The notes beneath the pieces are model-generated. The model saw only the letters and a program-made list of their open reading frames with translations. It searched no databases and was not told the DNA's origin. The position numbers and the translations under genes were made by a program. 22,151 nt of DNA from Calditrichia bacterium (GTDB lineage: Bacteria; Calditrichota; Calditrichia; RBG-13-44-9), in contig JARRQT010000029.1 of the NCBI GenBank assembly GCA_037381445.1, forward strand, positions 1 to 22,151. The letters are read 5' to 3'. How positions within the stretch are numbered: the first letter of the stretch is position 1; every line of letters starts with the position of its first letter. This document shows, one piece after another, positions 284-22,151 of the stretch.

Positions 284-755
284 TTTTTTCCTTTCCCTTA
301 TTTTGCAGGATTACTGCTCGAGCCACCCGCTGTCCAGACTATGCAACAATTTAATAAAGTCTGGCAGAGACATAAACGGTCAAGAAGAGAATTCGGCAGC
401 ACGAAAAGTGTTCCGATTTCGTAAAATCATTGAGGAAATCAACTCCAGTCATGGCGTCCAAGATACAAATTTCGGAATTCACAATCAATCCTTTTTTGGG
501 GATACCCTCTTCCCCGCCGGGAATATGAATCATTTTACCCCGGAAACGGACAAAGTTTTAAGCGCTCAATTCTCTGAATTGTTTCATCGATCTTCTCCTG
601 CCGATTGATTCCGAATGGTCTTTGCAGACACCGGAAGGCCTCGCCAAAAAAAGCATTCGTAAAGTGCTGATTTTATTTATATATTTTAACCTGCAAGATG
701 TTAGGAATTTCTAATTCAAATGTTTGTGGTACATTTTTTTCGGAATGCAGCCAGC

Positions 756-2033
756 ATGAATCAATCCCGTCCGCCCGACCGCCTCACCGAAGGCCCCATT
801 ATCAAATCGCTGGTCTCACTGACCATACCGATCGTGTTCGCCAATATTCTGCAGACCGCTTACCAGTTGACGGACACTTTCTGGGTGGGTCGTTTGGGAA
901 AAGCGGCAGTCGCGGCGGTCTCGCTGAGCTTCCCGGTAATCTTTCTGCTCACCTCGCTGGGCGGCGGGCTGGCCATTGCGGGCACCATTCTGGTCGCCCA
1001 ATACAAAGGAAAACGGGACCAGCAGAACGTGGATTTTGTCACTGCCCAGACCCTGATTCTCATGCTTGTTATCTCGGTCATCATTTCTTTTGTCGGTTAC
1101 TTCTCCGCCCATCCGGTGATGAAGCTGATGGGTGCGCAGCCGGCGGTGCTTCCCGGCGCCACTTCCTACCTTCAGATCTCATTCATGGGCCTTGTTTTTG
1201 TTTTCGGATACGCCGTTTTTCAATCGCTGATGCGCGGCGTGGGCAATTTCATTGGAATGATTGTGCTCTTAAGCGGCAAATTTGGTATCCAGCTGCACAG
1301 GAAGGATTTCAAACCGGACTTCGCGCTGATCCGGCGAATGTTCAGCCTGGGTTTTCCTGCTTCAATTGAACAATCTACCCGCGCCCTGGGAATGACCATC
1401 ATGACATTCCTGGTGGCCAGTTTCGGCACGGTGATCATCGCCGCCTATGGCATCGGCAGCCGAATCCTGAGCTTCGTCATCATTCCCGCCCTGGGGCTTT
1501 CCATGGCCACTTCAACGCTGGTGGGTCAGAATATCGGCGCGCAGAAAATTGAGCGGGCCGAGAAAATCGCCAGAACCAGCGCCCTGATCGGTTTCCTGGT
1601 CCTGACCGCGGTGGGCGTAGTGATCTTTTTTACGGCGGGCTATCTCTCGGAATTCTTTATTCCCGGTGAGCCGGAAGCCATCCGCTCCAGCACCCTGTTT
1701 ATCCGGGTCATGGCCCTCACCTTTGGATTCATCGGCATCCAGCAGGTGCTGAACGGCGCCTTCCGGGGCTCGGGCAATACCCTGGTTACCATGGTATTGT
1801 CCATCGTTTCCCTATGGGTGCTCAGGTTTCCCCTGGCGTATATTTTATCGGAACATACTCATTTGGCCTCAAAAGGGATCTGGTGGGCCTTTCCGGTTAC
1901 CAACGTGCTGGCCGCCGTCATTACCATCGCCTGGTTCATGAAAGGGAGCTGGAAGCAGAAGAAAATCACCCCTGAAATGAAGACCGCGGACAAGGTGGCG
2001 GAAGAATCCATCGTGGAAGGTGAGATCGGATAG
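756..2033 (+). CDS. MATE family efflux transporter with an apparent internal in-frame deletion (possibly non-functional)
   Basis: MATE signatures: LTEGPIIKSL, QTAYQLTDTFWVGRLG, AVAAVSL, LVAQYKG, STLVGQNIGA, FRGSGNT. ATG 756 preferred over 720 because LTEGP normally lies near the N-terminus. About 45-50 aa appear missing after MRGVGN. Confidence 0.9.
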   Translation: MNQSRPPDRLTEGPIIKSLVSLTIPIVFANILQTAYQLTDTFWVGRLGKAAVAAVSLSFPVIFLLTSLGGGLAIAGTILVAQYKGKRDQQNVDFVTAQTLILMLVISVIISFVGYFSAHPVMKLMGAQPAVLPGATSYLQISFMGLVFVFGYAVFQSLMRGVGNFIGMIVLLSGKFGIQLHRKDFKPDFALIRRMFSLGFPASIEQSTRALGMTIMTFLVASFGTVIIAAYGIGSRILSFVIIPALGLSMATSTLVGQNIGAQKIERAEKIARTSALIGFLVLTAVGVVIFFTAGYLSEFFIPGEPEAIRSSTLFIRVMALTFGFIGIQQVLNGAFRGSGNTLVTMVLSIVSLWVLRFPLAYILSEHTHLASKGIWWAFPVTNVLAAVITIAWFMKGSWKQKKITPEMKTADKVAEESIVEGEIG

Positions 2034-15561: not shown

Positions 15562-15974
15562 TTCGGCAATTTTTCGCAGCATTTGAGTATTCCTGTTTTT
15601 GAGACAGCTACAGGAACGCGAAAAACTTCCCTCACAGTAACCATTTGTTTCTAAATCATAAAAAGAAACAGGCCTTGGATTTTTGCATTATCTTTTTAGA
15701 TTAGGGATGCGTTTTATGGTGCCGTATTTTTTAAACTTGATGCTGTTCAACCAAGTTATCTGACCCGCAGCGGAACGGCACAGATTTTCATAATTTTCAG
15801 AATTGGCGGTCTTTAATTCCGGGGACGGAATCACCCAAAAATGGATTGTTTCCATTGAAATATCGGACAGCCCCGGCGACAGGCAGGCGAAAAATTAATT
15901 ACAATTGATTCACGATCTGCATGATCATTTCCCGGAGTACTAATTTCATATATCCAAACCGAAACTACCATTTG

Positions 15975-17078
15975 ATGAATATATTAAAAGCGGCCTTGTT
16001 ACTCCTATCTCTTCTGATGCTGACATGTGTTGTGCCAGGCTTCTCCGCTGCCAATGACTCATCCTACTATTTTTATCACGGGAGATCATACGGATCGGAG
16101 GAGACCTTCAATCCTCTGACAACCATTTTGAACGGCGGTTTCGGCATTCTGCAGATCAGCAGCCGCTCCAACCGGATTTCCGATATCGATTTCAGTACCG
16201 GCCTGAGAAATGTGACTTACAATCTCTCCCATCCGTTTTCAGCCATTGAAAAATTCGGCTGGAACAGGTTTTTGTCACAGGAAGTCATCCCCACCAGTTA
16301 TAAGCTGAAGGAGGCCCAGTATTTTCCGAATTATGAACTCCACCTGATCGGAGGCGGCGCCACTTTCCGCATGTTTCTGGAATGGTACCGCTGGCACCAG
16401 TTTCCCAAACCGGTTTTATGGTCGCTGACATCCTGGTTTTCTTACCACCTTATCAACGAAGTGGTTGAAAACAATACCTATCAGGGTCCCTCGGTGGACG
16501 TGCTGGCAGATATGTATATCTTCAATGTGGGCGGATTACTGTTGTTCAGCTCCGACCGGGTTTCACGCTTTTTCGGGCAGACGCTGCAGTTGCGGGACTG
16601 GTCCTTCATGCCGGCATATGACCCTGCGCTTCAGACCATCGAAAACATCGGTCAGAATTTCATGATCAAAATAAAGCTCCCTTTCTGGAAACCCTGGTCG
16701 CTGATGTATCATTTTGGTGTTCACGGCACCTGGGGATTGTCCTATCGCCGCAGGGACGGCCGCAGTTTTTCCCTTACCGGCGGGCTCATTGCCAAAGATA
16801 TCGTTGATATCGACAACGGCAGCGGCGTGCGCTCCCAGACCACCAACCTGGTGTGGACGGTGGCCATGTTCTACGACCTGAACAACTCCCTCCTGGCCTC
16901 CCTGATACTGGCCGGAACAAAGGGATATAAAGTAAGACTGAATATCTATCCAGGAATTTTCCGGATCGGAAATTTCTCCCCGGCGTTCTTTATCAGCCTG
17001 AGAGATGACAATGCGCTGGTCACCGGTTTCCACGTCCACTTCTCGCCTTTCGGACTGGCGCAGCGCTTCGGGATGTAG
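15975..17078 (+). CDS. Hypothetical exported / outer-membrane protein
   Basis: Long ORF with a signal peptide from ATG 15975 (MNILKAALLLLSLLMLTCVVPGFSA), a central helical hydrophobic region, and an aromatic, alternating beta-strand-like C-terminal third. Confidence 0.8.
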   Translation: MNILKAALLLLSLLMLTCVVPGFSAANDSSYYFYHGRSYGSEETFNPLTTILNGGFGILQISSRSNRISDIDFSTGLRNVTYNLSHPFSAIEKFGWNRFLSQEVIPTSYKLKEAQYFPNYELHLIGGGATFRMFLEWYRWHQFPKPVLWSLTSWFSYHLINEVVENNTYQGPSVDVLADMYIFNVGGLLLFSSDRVSRFFGQTLQLRDWSFMPAYDPALQTIENIGQNFMIKIKLPFWKPWSLMYHFGVHGTWGLSYRRRDGRSFSLTGGLIAKDIVDIDNGSGVRSQTTNLVWTVAMFYDLNNSLLASLILAGTKGYKVRLNIYPGIFRIGNFSPAFFISLRDDNALVTGFHVHFSPFGLAQRFGM

Positions 17079-17168
17079 TTCTCTTCAAGCGGAAACTTTG
17101 GTATTACCCCAGAAATTTCTGGAAATAACCAGCCAGACTTTGTACATTTTTACAAAAAACGGGTCGTC

Positions 17169-18155
17169 ATGCCAACCAATTTGCCGCCCGAATATTTCAG
17201 GGCAGAAGAGCGTTACCGGTCCGCCGACAGCCCGGATGAAAAGATCGTCCTGCTGGAAAAAATGATTGCCACCATCCCCAAGCACAAGGGAACGGACAAA
17301 CTCCGCGCTGACCTGCGAAGGAAACTGGCCAGGATGAAAGAGGCCGCCCGGGTCAGGAAAAAGACCGGCGGACACGAATCGCTTTTCCATGTGGAGAGGG
17401 AAGGCGCGGGCAGAGTACTGCTGGTGGGCCCGCCCAACAGCGGGAAATCGGCCCTGCTGGCCGCACTCACCGGGGCTGAGCCCAAAATTTCGGATTCCCC
17501 CTACACCACCTGGTCGGCAATTCCCGGCATGATGCTCCATGAAAAAATTCAAATTCAGCTCATCGATACCCCACCGCTGAGCAGGGAACATATCGAGCAC
17601 GAATTAATGGATCTGGCCCGTACGGCCGACATGATTTTGGTGGTATTGGACTTGTGCTGCGATCCGCTGAAGCAGTTGCAGGAAACCGCGGAAATCTTGG
17701 TTCAAAACGGAATTATACCCCATTGCGGCAGAAACCGTTTTGGAGATTCTCCCCACGCAGTAGTCCTGCCCTTTTTAGTTGTTGTAAATAAAACAGATAG
17801 CGCAGAACTGGATGAGGATTTTCATATTTTTTGTGATCTGCTGGAAGAGGAGTGGCCGCTCATCAGCATCTCCGGCCAGACCGGAAGGAATCTTGACAAA
17901 CTGAAACAGGAAATTTTCACCGGGCTGCAGATCATACGGGTTTATGCGAAGCCGCCCGGCCAGGAGGCGGATTTCAGCACTCCTTTTGCCATGAGACAGG
18001 GGGATACAGTTGAAGATTTCGCCGCCAGGGTGCACAAAGATTTTGTCAAAAATCTGAAGACCGCCCGTATCTGGGGCAAAAAGGTTTATGACGGCCAACC
18101 CGCGGGACGTGACCACCTGCTGGAAGACGGCGACGTAGTGGAACTGCATACGTAG
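17169..18155 (+). CDS. DRG-type (Obg superfamily) GTPase with C-terminal TGS domain
   Basis: N-terminal IPKHKGTDKLRADLRRKLA, G1 GPPNSGKS, G2 PYTT, G3 variant DTPP, G4 NKTD, and TGS IRVYAKPPG...TVEDFAARVHKDF...ARIWG...HLLEDGDVVELH. Confidence 0.92.
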   Translation: MPTNLPPEYFRAEERYRSADSPDEKIVLLEKMIATIPKHKGTDKLRADLRRKLARMKEAARVRKKTGGHESLFHVEREGAGRVLLVGPPNSGKSALLAALTGAEPKISDSPYTTWSAIPGMMLHEKIQIQLIDTPPLSREHIEHELMDLARTADMILVVLDLCCDPLKQLQETAEILVQNGIIPHCGRNRFGDSPHAVVLPFLVVVNKTDSAELDEDFHIFCDLLEEEWPLISISGQTGRNLDKLKQEIFTGLQIIRVYAKPPGQEADFSTPFAMRQGDTVEDFAARVHKDFVKNLKTARIWGKKVYDGQPAGRDHLLEDGDVVELHT

Positions 18156-18221
18156 GCAAATTTTGACAGGATGGTCAAATTTCATCTCCCGGGATTTTAG
18201 TTCAGCAAAACGGAATTTATT

Positions 18222-20889
18222 TTACCGCTTCTCACTCTTATCATCCCGCAGAAGCTGCACGCCGAGGGTCAGTCCGCCGCCAAAGAGAAATCCTTCCAGG
18301 GCACCCAGGATCAGGCGCGATATTCTGCCAAAATGAGCTTCCCCGAAGAGCTGTGCCAGCGGCTGCAGATTGACCTGTGAATTGGAAAACGAATGGGCAA
18401 TCGTCTCGATGCTGGCGCTGAAAAGATTTCCCTGAATCAGCGTGAGAAAAATGGCCATCACCATGGCGCCCAATGCCGCATAAAAGATCTTTGTCCAGTC
18501 GATTCGGCGCCTGGGGAACCCGCCCGCCAGGTAACCCAGGGAAAGCCCCAGACCAATCAGGGCACCTTCGTAGGCGCCGGCTATTCCACCCAAATTCTGT
18601 CCGAACAGAGCCCGCAAGGTATCAACCCCGATGGCATGCAGACTGCCCCCGACAAAACCGCCGCCGGCAACAGCCCCCAGAATCGCCCAGTAAGGACTGT
18701 GCCGGTAGCTGACAAACTGCATGGTTGCCATTCCCAGACTGATACCCAATCCCGCCATTAACCCTGCCAGGGCTCCCAGGCTGGACAATACCAGCACCAG
18801 GGTAACCGGTGAGCAGACCCGCGGCTCCCGCCCCCGCAGCACCGCCAATGGTTTCCTTCAGAATATCCATCTTGTTGCGGCGCAGGCGCACCCACATCAG
18901 ACCGGATAATACCAGCAGGACAATATGCGGCGGCAGGCGCCTCAACCAGATCAACATTTTATTATGGTCCCGGATGAAAGCAATACTGATGGCTTTCCGG
19001 ATGATTCCGGGGCTGGGCTGGCTGTTTTTGTCCAGAAGCCAGCGCTTTGACTCCTTCCCGAATCTTTCGGCGAGCGCGATACTGGCCGCTTTGCGGACAT
19101 TCAGATCGGGGTCCCACAAGGCCATCTCTTTCAGGATTGACAGCAAATCATCATTTAATCCATATTCGGCAGACTCTATGGCACAGATTCGTATTGGAGG
19201 CTTTTCATTCCGCATCGCTTCCTGAATCAGGCCAGTCACCGAGGGAAATTTTCTGATCAGCCACTCCGGGATCAGCCTGGCCCGGTTCAGCATGCTCCTG
19301 GCCAGCAGCCCGGCCTCATTTTCGTTCAGCGGCAGTTTACTACCCAGCGGGCTAATGACGTCAATCGTGTCGTCATCCATCAGCAGCCCATGCAGCTCGT
19401 AATTCTCAACCGCGCGTTCGATGAGAGAGTGAGCCTGCTTCAGCGCAAGAAGTTCAGCCGACTGCCAGCGGGAGATCTCCGGAATTAAAAAATCGTGGGT
19501 CAATTCCACCCAGATTTCTCCGTCCTGCCGCCGGAACCGCACAATGCGGGCGTCAGAAAGTTCCGATACCAGAGAATGTATCTTTGCCTCATCCCCGGAC
19601 TGATAGGTTACCCGCTCCTGCAGTCTGGAGAGGGGCAAAATTAACCGCTGATTTTTTGCGGAAATGAGCGCGCCGAGAATCGCTCTCACCATTTCAATTT
19701 CCTCACTGTTGAAACGTCGGACTACCCGCTCCAGATAGCGACTCAATATTTGCGAAGCGCCGCCCAGCCGTCGATAACCGGCTAAGGGAATCCGGCCTTC
19801 TACCTCTTTCAAATCGTAAAGGGCATCGCAGACGATCTGAAGCTGGGGCGGATCAACAAATTCATCGTCGGACAGATCGTCGAGGATCATCTGCACCAAC
19901 GGCGGTTCCAGATCACAATTCACCTTTCTGGCGGGTTCGGTGATGGCCCTCTCCGCCTGCTCCCTGTTCAGCCGCTGCAACCGGTATTCATGGTGGAATA
20001 TCTCGGGCAGGATGTGTTTAAACTGGTTCATCTCCGCCAGATAATCCTCGCGGACAGCGAACACCAGTCTCAACTGGATTCGATTTTGCCGGAATACCTC
20101 CCCGATGTTGCGGAAAAAATTGTCCCGCGCTTCGGGATGGGTCAGGGTGAAGAACTCTTCGAACTGGTCCAGAATAAAAATAACGTTCTGTTCCGGCGAG
20201 GCAATTCGCTGCTGCAGCAGTTGGTATAAGTCGAGATTTTCGCCGGATGAAGTGTCCCCTGACAGCACCCGCACCATTTCTTCAAACGGATCATAAAAAC
20301 TGCGGACGGAAAATGCCAGATGGCCCATTCTTTTTAAAGATGGAATCAGACCGGCATGGACCAGGGAGCTCTTCCCGACCCCCGACCGCCCGTAAAGAAT
20401 AAAACTGCGGTGCGAGAGAATTTTGGAGCAGATAATCCTGACTTCGCTTTCCCTTCCGTAGAATAAATCCGTATCTTCTTCGGTGTAATAATCCAGAAAC
20501 TTGTAGGGGCGTTTGACGACCGTTTGTATTCCCTGCGCTTGCGGAACCGCCGGCTCCTTTTCCGAAACTGAAATCGGCGTTTTCAGAAACATGAATCCCT
20601 TTTTGGGGAACGTCTTGATATACCTGGGATTTTTTGCATCATCTCCCAGCGCTTTGCGGATATCCTTTATGCACTGGCTCAGGGCGGAATCGGTGACAAT
20701 TAAGCCCTGCCATATTTCCCGGAAAAGCTGATCCCGACTGATTAACTGCTGCGGCCGGCCCGCCAGGAACGCCAGCACATCAAAATATTTGGCATTGAGC
20801 GTAACAGCCTCGCCATTCCGGTTCAACTGCCGGTTTCTAAGGTCGATGATAATATCGTCAAATTTATATGAAGTAATCGGACTGCTCAT
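18222..20889 (-). pseudogene. CadC/ToxR-type winged-helix regulator fused to an nSTAND1-like NTPase, helical (HEAT-like) repeats and a multi-TM C-terminus; frameshifted near 18807
   Basis: wHTH ...IWQGLIVTDSALSQCIKDIRKALGDDAKNPRYIKTFPKKGFMF; PYKFLDYY...LFYGRESE; Walker A GRSGVGKSS; Walker B FILDQFEEFF; AVREDYL; PPQLQIVC; HEAT-like DPDLNVRKAASIALA. Frame 1 loses TM character after GAAGLLTG, and frame 2 (18222-18806) continues as a Gly-rich multi-TM domain. Confidence 0.85.
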
Positions 20890-20894
20890 TTCAT

Positions 20895-20925
20895 ATTTCT
20901 CATGAATTTCTCACAAAAATCTCAT
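20895..20925 (+). promoter_or_regulatory. Three tandem direct repeats with 11-bp period (candidate wHTH binding site)
   Basis: ATTTCTCAT-ga-ATTTCTCAC-aa-AAATCTCAT; the TCTCA cores start at 20898, 20909 and 20920. A -10-like TATGCT at 20947-20952 faces uppS. Confidence 0.7.
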
Positions 20926-21282
20926 TTTTCCATCCACAAAATAATGTATGCTTAATTTGTAATTGGATGTTTTGTCAAAGAGCTCACCAGGAGCGCGCCA
21001 TCAACAGGGAATTTATCTGAATGAAAAATTTTATATATCAACGGATTGATTTCATTTCCTCTGTCTTTTTGCCAGTCCTCATAAATACCCGGGCAAGACC
21101 TTTTAATTCACCAGTTCATTCCAATATAATGAATTTATTACCATTCAGGTTATTGAAGATCAATTTTTTTGGATTTCAGGAAATAACGGTTCCGGCAGCC
21201 TCGGTTTTTCCGCTTGCAGCCGCATTCCGGATTTGAAACAACGATAAAAAAATCAGGATTTTCCCGATTAAAAGGAGAAGGT

Positions 21283-22014
21283 ATGAAGCAGTCTTTTCAG
21301 GAATATGATCATGGCAATCTGCATGTCGCAATTATAATGGACGGCAACGGCCGCTGGGCCAGCCTGAAGGGCAAACCACGTTTCCGGGGACATCGGGCGG
21401 GAGCGGAGCGGGCGCGGGAGATTATTGAATCGGCGCCGGAAAATAACATCTCCGTGCTTACCCTGTATGCCTTCTCCTCCGATAACTGGCAGCGTCCGCG
21501 AAATGAAGTGGATTTCCTGATGAATCTCTTTCGTTCCTATCTGGAATCGGAAGTAAAACGCTGTCTGGATAATGATGTCCGTCTAAGCATCATCGGGCGG
21601 CGGGACCGTTTAAATGACAGCCTGCTGAATCTCATAGACCACGCCGAATCGGCAACCTTTGGCGGATCAAATCTGCACCTCCGGGTCGCCATTGATTACT
21701 CCGCCAGGGATGCTATTCTGCAGGCGGCACAGATGCTTGAGAACCGGATAAATCCGACCCGTGAAGAATTTTCCTCCCTCCTTGACAACGGTTTCGCCTA
21801 CGGACACGCTTCCCCCGATGTAGATCTGCTCATCCGAACGGGCGGGGAAAAACGCCTGAGCGATTTTTTACTGTGGGAATGCGCCTATGCGGAACTTTAT
21901 TTCACCAATACCATGTGGCCCGATTTCGACAAGCATTGTCTGAAAAAAGCGGTTGACGATTTTTACGCGCGGGAACGCCGTTTTGGCAGGGTGCCGGAAC
22001 CAGTGGCCATCTGA
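21283..22014 (+). CDS. uppS: cis-prenyltransferase (undecaprenyl diphosphate synthase family), probably a secondary paralog
   Basis: HVAIIMDGNGRWA, GHRAG, TLYAFSSDNWQRP, LLIRTGGEKRLSDFLLWECAYAELYF, WPDF, RERRFG. RBS AAGGAG precedes ATG 21283, which is preferred over the track's 21214. Confidence 0.93.
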   Translation: MKQSFQEYDHGNLHVAIIMDGNGRWASLKGKPRFRGHRAGAERAREIIESAPENNISVLTLYAFSSDNWQRPRNEVDFLMNLFRSYLESEVKRCLDNDVRLSIIGRRDRLNDSLLNLIDHAESATFGGSNLHLRVAIDYSARDAILQAAQMLENRINPTREEFSSLLDNGFAYGHASPDVDLLIRTGGEKRLSDFLLWECAYAELYFTNTMWPDFDKHCLKKAVDDFYARERRFGRVPEPVAI

Positions 22015-22035
22015 TTCAACATCATTTCAAAAATG

Positions 22036-22076
22036 GAATCCGCCTGCCGGTTCGGGAAAAAGATAGCAGGCGATTC
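22036..22076 (+). terminator. Hairpin after uppS, possible terminator
   Basis: GAAT-C-CGCCTGC ... GCAGGCG-ATTC stem with an 18-nt loop, followed by a pyrimidine-rich stretch. Confidence 0.3.
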
Positions 22077-22151
22077 TGTCATTCCCTGCTTTTCCTTTTA
22101 CCTCCCTTTCAATTTTTCTGTCAGAGGGGAAGCAGAAAATACATTCCTTCT

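Follow-up and report, generated by a model that had tools for sequence, protein, structure and literature searches.

Regulator protein

The window analyzed is a 22,151-nt stretch of Calditrichia bacterium DNA (assembly GCA_037381445.1, contig JARRQT010000029.1, positions 1 to 22,151, forward strand). Towards its right end, the gene for a predicted membrane-bound transcription regulator lies on the minus strand, divergent from a second-copy cis-prenyltransferase gene, uppS, with a putative operator between the two. The minus-strand open reading frame (ORF) at 20889-18622 matched Trans_reg_C, nSTAND1, and, weakly, HEAT_2 in N- to C-terminal order in a profile scan. The 5' part of the regulator gene (18804..20889, minus strand, 695 codons) encodes a winged helix-turn-helix (wHTH), an nSTAND1 nucleoside triphosphatase (NTPase), a HEAT region, and the beginning of membrane helix 1. 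The 3' part (18222..18803, minus strand, 193 codons) lies in a different frame and encodes the remainder of a predicted six-helix, Gly-rich membrane domain.

The OmpR/CadC-type winged helix (Trans_reg_C, aa 26-101; 20587..20814, minus strand) scored 60.2 bits against a cut-off of 26.2 (E 2e-16), and its nearest solved domains in structure-profile comparison were CadC and ToxR. The CadC family profile was not reached (68.8 against a cut-off of 400), and no BTAD domain was matched after the wHTH in the profile scan. A linker of only ~26 residues leads to the nSTAND1 module (aa 128-484; 19438..20508, minus strand; 205.9 bits against a cut-off of 27.1, E 2e-60, profile positions 1-359 of 379), in which a Walker A motif, GRSGVGKS, was read at 20368-20391 (minus strand). 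The HEAT repeats, of alphaRep-like type (aa 553-633; 18991..19233, minus strand), are helical in the structure model; HEAT_2 stayed below its cut-off, and a profile of 89 homologues matched alphaRep at E 5e-20. An earlier note, written from the sequence alone, had described this protein as wHTH, nSTAND1, HEAT-like, and multi-transmembrane parts in one, and had proposed profile searches of it; the description is borne out by the two matches above cut-off, the alphaRep match, and the six predicted helices.

The nSTAND1 motifs are near-invariant in 89 homologues (G/K/S in 88-89, D-Q-F-E in 88-89, R-E-D in 89, P in 89, H in 89, and D in 85), with the key positions of Walker A, Walker B, a sensor-1 Arg, a PPQLQ/GxP-like motif, and an MHD-like His kept in 85-89 of the 89. 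Because the motifs are near-invariant, the NTPase is probably active, as far as sequence can tell. The structure model was made of an intact homologue (P0003; pLDDT 83, pTM 0.55) and shows, after the head and the linker, an NTPase whose subdomains are helical and winged, then helical repeats, and long helices at the C-terminus. It matched ORC/Cdc6, NRC3, the archaeal STAND protein 6mfv, Avs3, and Apaf-1 at E 1e-7 to 1e-5. Since it pairs a DNA-binding domain with one membrane region or more, as the definition of Demey et al. (PMC10269533) asks, the protein is a transmembrane transcription regulator, its membrane location being predicted.

Modeled alone, the membrane domain (pLDDT 88, pTM 0.84) consists of six long helices, with two short ones between the fifth and the sixth and no soluble C-terminal or periplasmic domain in the model. 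Basic residues precede helix 1 and recur in loops 2-3 and 4-5 and at the C-terminus, whereas loops 1-2 and 3-4 contain few of them, a charge distribution that fits a predicted N-in, C-in topology. Five polar residues are kept (Asp in 68, Glu in 91, Ser in 84, Glu in 84, and Glu in 95 of ~95 rows) and under that topology would lie mostly on the outer side. The domain belongs to no Pfam or NCBIfam family and gave no Foldseek match at E 0.001; the best VIA match (Z 8.3) was among unrelated helical bundles, and Atlas matches were below 0.9 and without names. Comparison with RibU, an S-component of an energy-coupling factor transporter, gave Z 7.8 and rmsd 4.2 over 151 aligned residues, tied with Tim17-like chains, a level that corresponds to a common helical arrangement. 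Dimer prediction of the domain gave a score of 0.01.

Break in the regulator frame

The regulator frame is broken by a 56-nt gap between 18803 and 18804. A contig of run X1, possibly from the source sample, matched the window near-perfectly on both sides and had 56 extra letters at this point, and contigs of close relatives in X2-X4 broke off at the gap site. The homologues compared were the best 120 of 2338 matches, 119 after exclusion of the regulator's own protein. In all 93 of these in which both anchor motifs were found, the motifs are 82 residues apart, against 63 in the window, which leaves 19 missing. The 56 letters restore the frame and give a protein of 695 + 19 + 193 = 907 aa. The break is thus no frameshift by a single base, and this length replaces the ~888 aa of the earlier note. 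An assembly error most likely accounts for the gap, with the regulator gene probably intact in its own genome. Alternatively, since contigs drop rare variants, it may be a real deletion in a minority of molecules. The membrane part is in the same chain as the wHTH-STAND part in 118 of the 119 homologues, the sole miss being a 596-aa fragment, so the single fused protein proposed earlier stands, and the membrane part is not a separate gene in these relatives.

Other irregular copies were seen: the regulator is split at G001:C54:22341-24915 and lacks ~47 profile positions of the membrane domain at G537:C270:815-1525. Within the window, a MATE transporter gene (720-2033, plus strand) falls ~49 residues short of its best relative (418 against ~467 over the span that matched), apparently near residue 176, and may mark a second gap in the contig.

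Divergent uppS

The gene facing the regulator (21283..22014, plus strand) passed the cut-off of the PRK14839 subfamily (NF011412, 337.3 bits against 334), and another uppS, 43% identical to it, is on contig C20 of the same genome, which confirms the head-to-head cis-prenyltransferase noted earlier and makes it a second copy. Rows of the PRK14839 type carry E73D, N144D, N203D, and Q208E, each of which turns an amide or Glu into Asp or Glu, in 32/32 and G146S in 31/32 (E. coli numbering); at every catalytic and substrate-binding position checked, the residue is canonical. The uppS genes linked to the regulator fall into two well-separated clades of the tree. The linked gene is one of two uppS copies in 5/5 Acidobacteriota genomes examined; in the lineage in which the regulator is linked to hpnCDE, one ordinary uppS is present in each of four genomes, and two fragments are present in a fifth.

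The predicted uppS leader (20959-21283, plus strand, ~325 nt) includes a hairpin (21251-21269) and a non-conserved ORF of 72 codons. At 15 loci, the leaders, 93-580 nt long, shared no conserved small ORF or conserved DNA, and no Rfam match was found in 17000-22151. In genome G003 (L067:3994-5935) and on an Aureimonas plasmid (L066:3941-7603), a PRK14839-type uppS lies behind another gene pair, for a membrane protein and an HTH_34 protein, and the TGAG repeat described below is absent. The two membrane proteins are 24% identical to each other, and a linalool dehydratase/isomerase-like gene follows uppS on the plasmid. The pair may be a second regulatory system for the PRK14839-type enzyme.

Operator and promoter

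Between the two genes, CTCA occurs at 20899, 20910, and 20921 with an 11-bp period (20899..20924, plus strand; TGAG-N7-TGAG-N7-TGAG on the regulator strand) and forms a putative operator. A general repeat finder gave nothing convincing for the tandem repeats that the earlier note had placed here; what stood was this CTCA triple, through its conservation across loci. The 26-bp triple is the only perfect one in the 5.1-Mb genome, where the next-best position weight matrix score was 16.7 against 44.3. Control triples with other spacings gave 0, 0, 2, and 0 perfect matches in the same genome, and the weight of the repeat therefore comes from its conservation. Upstream of genes for the long form of the regulator, which has the STAND module, 57 regions were scanned after removal of exact duplicates, near-duplicates being kept. 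The repeat was present at 0-1 mismatch of 12 in 48 of them (30 perfect, 18 with one mismatch; ~0.1 expected) and on the other strand in none.

The position of the repeat differs among relatives that have no STAND module. Three short forms on plasmids also have it upstream; in mid-length forms of Acidobacteriota, it was upstream of the regulator in 0/14, and in 12 of 16 loci three CTCA stand just behind the regulator gene, ahead of genes that run in the same direction. One of the other four is cut by a contig end, two are without the repeat, and in the last, which is divergent, the repeat precedes creD-like and uppS genes on the strand of these targets. The genes after the Acidobacteriota repeat were a PRK14839-type uppS (2), creD-like (3), yjbQ-like (5, two of them followed by radical SAM), an ankyrin lipoprotein (2), and a serine hydrolase. 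Because the repeat follows the target in a fixed orientation in STAND-less relatives, it is probably the operator of the targets.

A putative -10 hexamer of the uppS promoter, TATGCT (20947..20952, plus strand), lies 22 nt past the proximal CTCA. Among 54 long-form loci, three with poor repeats having been dropped, TAnnnT was found on the target strand exactly 22 nt past the proximal CTCA in 40 and at 21-23 nt in 46, against a background with a mean of 3 and a maximum of 8; in five loci, in the phylum of genome G079, the hexamer is a perfect TATAAT. A 17-bp spacer would make the -35 element overlap the proximal repeat at its end; the sequence there is a poor -35, and a poor -35 overlapped by the repeat is the predicted layout of an activator-dependent promoter. 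A plain scan for consensus promoters returned one weak site, no more than in shuffled sequence, and missed the TATGCT hexamer. The regulon is probably local because the genome has a single strong site. Genome G300 has one extra perfect repeat site.

Gene neighborhoods

Neighborhoods were counted in 67 distinct long-form loci, 60 of which have at least 1.2 kb of upstream flank, with targets sought within 4.5 kb. In 55 of the 60, the regulator faces a gene for an enzyme that consumes a prenyl diphosphate: a PRK14839-type uppS (25), a uppS of canonical signature (13), or hpnC (17). The remaining five have only a radical SAM gene (1), only small membrane proteins (2), or none of these (2). The PRK14839-type uppS is followed by creD in 8 of its 25 loci, the canonical-signature uppS often lies behind a B12 radical SAM gene, and hpnD and hpnE are present wherever hpnC loci were read. 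With PRK14839-type genes called at a minimum of 311 bits (next best 247), 19 of 61 genomes of the phylum have both the regulator and such a uppS, one has the uppS alone (G003), none has the regulator alone, and 41 have neither. The link to a second-copy uppS in the earlier note is supported by these counts and was too narrow as a description, as the targets also include hpnCDE, creD-like, B12 radical SAM, and yjbQ genes and small membrane proteins. No creD was found in the window's own genome, which is 92% complete and in which the contig ends 137 bp past uppS.

Several neighboring genes were recorded at these loci. At L162-L181 (phylum of G079), the long form faces ribB or a Zn-dehydrogenase gene, followed by hpnC, hpnD, hpnE, and often a sugar-phosphate isomerase-like gene. 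A B12-binding radical SAM family that is below all NCBIfam cut-offs (L039:1960-3624, L191:7812-9257) recurs under the operator beside uppS or yjbQ and is possibly an isoprenoid lipid methylase. The window also encodes a 385-aa protein without a Pfam match (15921-17078, plus strand); in L001, L011/L031, and L013, the gene immediately behind the regulator encodes a relative of it. A GTPase gene (17169-18155, plus strand; MMR_HSR1 and TGS, below all NCBIfam cut-offs) is convergent with the regulator, and we take its product to be DRG-like. On the Sphingomonas plasmid pR1b, genes with the annotations Pycsar effector, E2 domain, cyclases, and TIR (L064:11045-15973) are 2-7 kb away from a short-form regulator, a proximity that is probably due to chance.

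Family and related systems

A profile search with the membrane domain gave 352 clusters at 50% identity. Among the 89 longer of the 150 membrane-domain representatives listed, 67 have a wHTH without nSTAND1, 7 have both, and 4 are nSTAND1 fragments. The earlier note had mentioned relatives made of a wHTH and several transmembrane helices without the STAND module, and these are the 67; three adjoin a PRK14839-type uppS in Acidobacteriota. Sphingomonas and Acidobacteriota have STAND-less forms, which are 340-560 aa long. Long forms were found in 19/61 genomes of the window's own phylum, 32/33 of the phylum of G079 (which contains one titled Latescibacterota), and 10/151 of a KSB1-type phylum, and also in Blastocatellia; two genomes of the KSB1-type set are flagged as unpublished and support no other claim here. 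In an unrooted FastTree tree of 81 rows, the 26 long forms make up one side of a branch (97%), with the short form P0199 adjacent; a single gain of the STAND module would be the simpler reading of this tree. A HEAT remnant in the mid-length forms was considered and found no support (profile-profile probability 2%). The repeat is shared with forms that have no STAND module, and the module is therefore predicted to be dispensable for the basic circuit.

The regulator family is widespread, conserved, and apparently undescribed. Literature searches returned no study of it in the parts of the sources available, including 10.64898/2026.01.04.697583, PMC7159879, and PMC3968067. The available text of a survey of transmembrane regulators (PMC10269533) does not mention the architecture, and its list of 50,302 regulators may hold members without comment.

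Five known systems resemble the regulator in part. It shares with ToxR, CadC, and TcpP a membrane-bound one-component design and a winged helix that is nearest to those of CadC and ToxR. These receptors have a single membrane helix followed by a periplasmic sensor, whereas the regulator has six predicted helices, no periplasmic domain, and, in the long form, 550 aa of STAND and HEAT. BcrR of Enterococcus faecalis has an XRE-type head and four helices. It has no NTPase and controls an ABC transporter. Compared by description, it is likewise a one-component transmembrane regulator and is induced by bacitracin (PMC3968067, PMC10269533). AfsR, of the large Streptomyces antibiotic regulatory proteins (SARPs), also has an N-terminal OmpR-type DNA-binding domain, a STAND NTPase, and helical repeats, and uses 11-bp direct repeats beside the -35 (PMC10936776). 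The regulator differs from AfsR in having no BTAD match, an NTPase of the nSTAND1 clade, HEAT instead of TPR, a C-terminal six-helix membrane domain, three repeats, and isoprenoid and envelope targets. SigM with YhdL/YhdK of Bacillus subtilis, again compared by description, controls transcription from within the membrane according to carrier level, the role proposed here (PMC11081497); it is an extracytoplasmic function sigma factor and anti-sigma with many targets, whereas the regulator is one protein with a local target. CreBC controls creD in several proteobacteria (PMC4689548), and creD is the gene found behind uppS here; CreBC is a pair of kinase and response regulator, in contrast to a single protein. 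The cytoplasmic part is most like AfsR and the membrane-bound design like ToxR/CadC or BcrR; the protein lies outside the SARPs because no BTAD was found, and outside the ToxR-like receptors because it does not have a single helix with a periplasmic domain.

Proposed mechanism and alternatives

We tentatively propose, with a little less than even confidence, that the protein is a carrier-sensing activator of the divergent second-copy uppS that acts through the CTCA-N7 triple repeat. The winged heads would bind the three repeats in tandem, recruit RNA polymerase, and turn on uppS. Binding 10-35 bp from the regulator's own start codon may also repress the regulator gene. The likely sensor would be the membrane domain, since no other part besides the head is common to all forms that use the same repeat, and its signal may be shortage or trapping of the polyprenyl-phosphate lipid carrier. 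In long forms, the signal would pass through HEAT to the STAND module, and the head would be held off until ATP binds, by analogy with AfsR, which binds 11-bp direct repeats overlapping the -35 and whose NOD/TPR inhibition is lifted by ATP (PMC10936776).

The identity of the signal is the weakest step of this scheme. Carrier shortage is favored because second-copy uppS and creD have been recruited repeatedly and because there are precedents: CreD rises more than 30-fold on fouling of the undecaprenyl pool in Burkholderia cenocepacia (PMC12152626), and SigM with its membrane anti-sigma responds to the level of undecaprenyl phosphate (PMC11081497). Several observations weigh against the proposal, and hpnCDE, the unrelated targets, and the acidic conserved residues weaken the case for carrier shortage in particular. 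Squalene synthesis by hpnCDE, at 17 loci of one phylum, would draw farnesyl diphosphate off from the carrier instead of replenishing it. For other targets (ribB, Zn-dehydrogenase, yjbQ, ankyrin lipoprotein, serine hydrolase, and small membrane proteins), a connection with the carrier is not obvious. The top conserved intramembrane polar residues are acidic (Glu in 95/95 and 91/95), and direct phosphate binding would lead one to expect basic ones. The PRK14839 enzyme is altered at five positions. All three Sphingomonad plasmid loci (STAND-less, two of them near-identical) are without uppS within 8 kb; the gene that they face is for a small membrane protein, of which a relative lies beside the long-form locus L053. 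The strict -10 pattern was found in 0/13 mid-length and 0/3 short loci, whose hosts are GC-rich. Genomes within a phylum are kin, and the number of independent linkages behind the counts is perhaps four or five.

The same activator and operator could instead serve a membrane domain that senses the general state of the membrane (protons, cations, cationic peptides, or fluidity), with the targets as a mixed repair kit. Targets that vary across lineages, two near-invariant glutamates in predicted membrane helices, and the harm that creD loss does to envelope integrity in Stenotrophomonas (PMC4689548) would all suit such a sensor, which we regard as rather unlikely: uppS was recruited from two separate clades, and a prenyl-diphosphate-using enzyme opposite 55 of 60 long-form loci is a theme narrower than a stress regulon. 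Less probable still is a specialized isoprenoid lipid, in which the PRK14839 enzyme, or uppS with the B12 radical SAM protein, would make an unusual product and the regulator would sense its precursor or the product itself. Five substitutions fixed in 31 of 32 PRK14839-type rows, with four in the remaining row, point this way, as do the position of a B12 radical SAM gene ahead of uppS in Blastocatellia, the linalool dehydratase-like gene adjoining the Aureimonas enzyme, and hpnCDE as an alternative target; the canonical state of all catalytic and substrate-binding residues checked, the canonical-signature uppS in 13 loci, and creD, which points to the envelope, speak against it.

In long forms, the signal might also be cytoplasmic and read by HEAT/STAND, the membrane domain being merely an anchor or dimerization device. 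In STAND proteins, sensing usually falls to the repeats that follow the NTPase (PMC10936776), and the STAND motifs are intact, but the STAND-less forms of head and membrane domain are the more diverse (67/89 representatives) and have the same repeat and targets, and six helices with conserved outer-side polar residues exceed what an anchor needs, which makes this quite improbable. A role in anti-phage defense or conflict, as for other nSTAND1 proteins, which are named in counter-invader systems (PMC8195603), is hardly credible for a single-copy, highly conserved gene with metabolic neighbors; PADLOC matched 0 families for 3 proteins, and viral contigs contained no relatives of the short-form alignment or of uppS.

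A stronger form of the carrier-sensing proposal, which we consider possible and on balance doubtful, is that the six-helix domain is a new sensor that binds polyprenyl phosphate or pyrophosphate directly, perhaps via a cation held by the two conserved glutamates. The family would then play, in diderms, the part of SigM in lipid-carrier homeostasis, and its long forms would be the first membrane-integral STAND transcription factors, in which an intrabilayer signal trips an NLR-type ATP switch.

Implications

Few cases are known of how bacteria gauge a scarce lipid carrier, and carrier supply is an antibiotic target. The family combines one protein with a 26-bp operator and a promoter, both predicted, and has a natural STAND-less counterpart in cultured Sphingomonads. 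It would also reveal how a STAND switch links a sensor in the membrane to a DNA-binding head and would provide a first function for the PRK14839 uppS subfamily.

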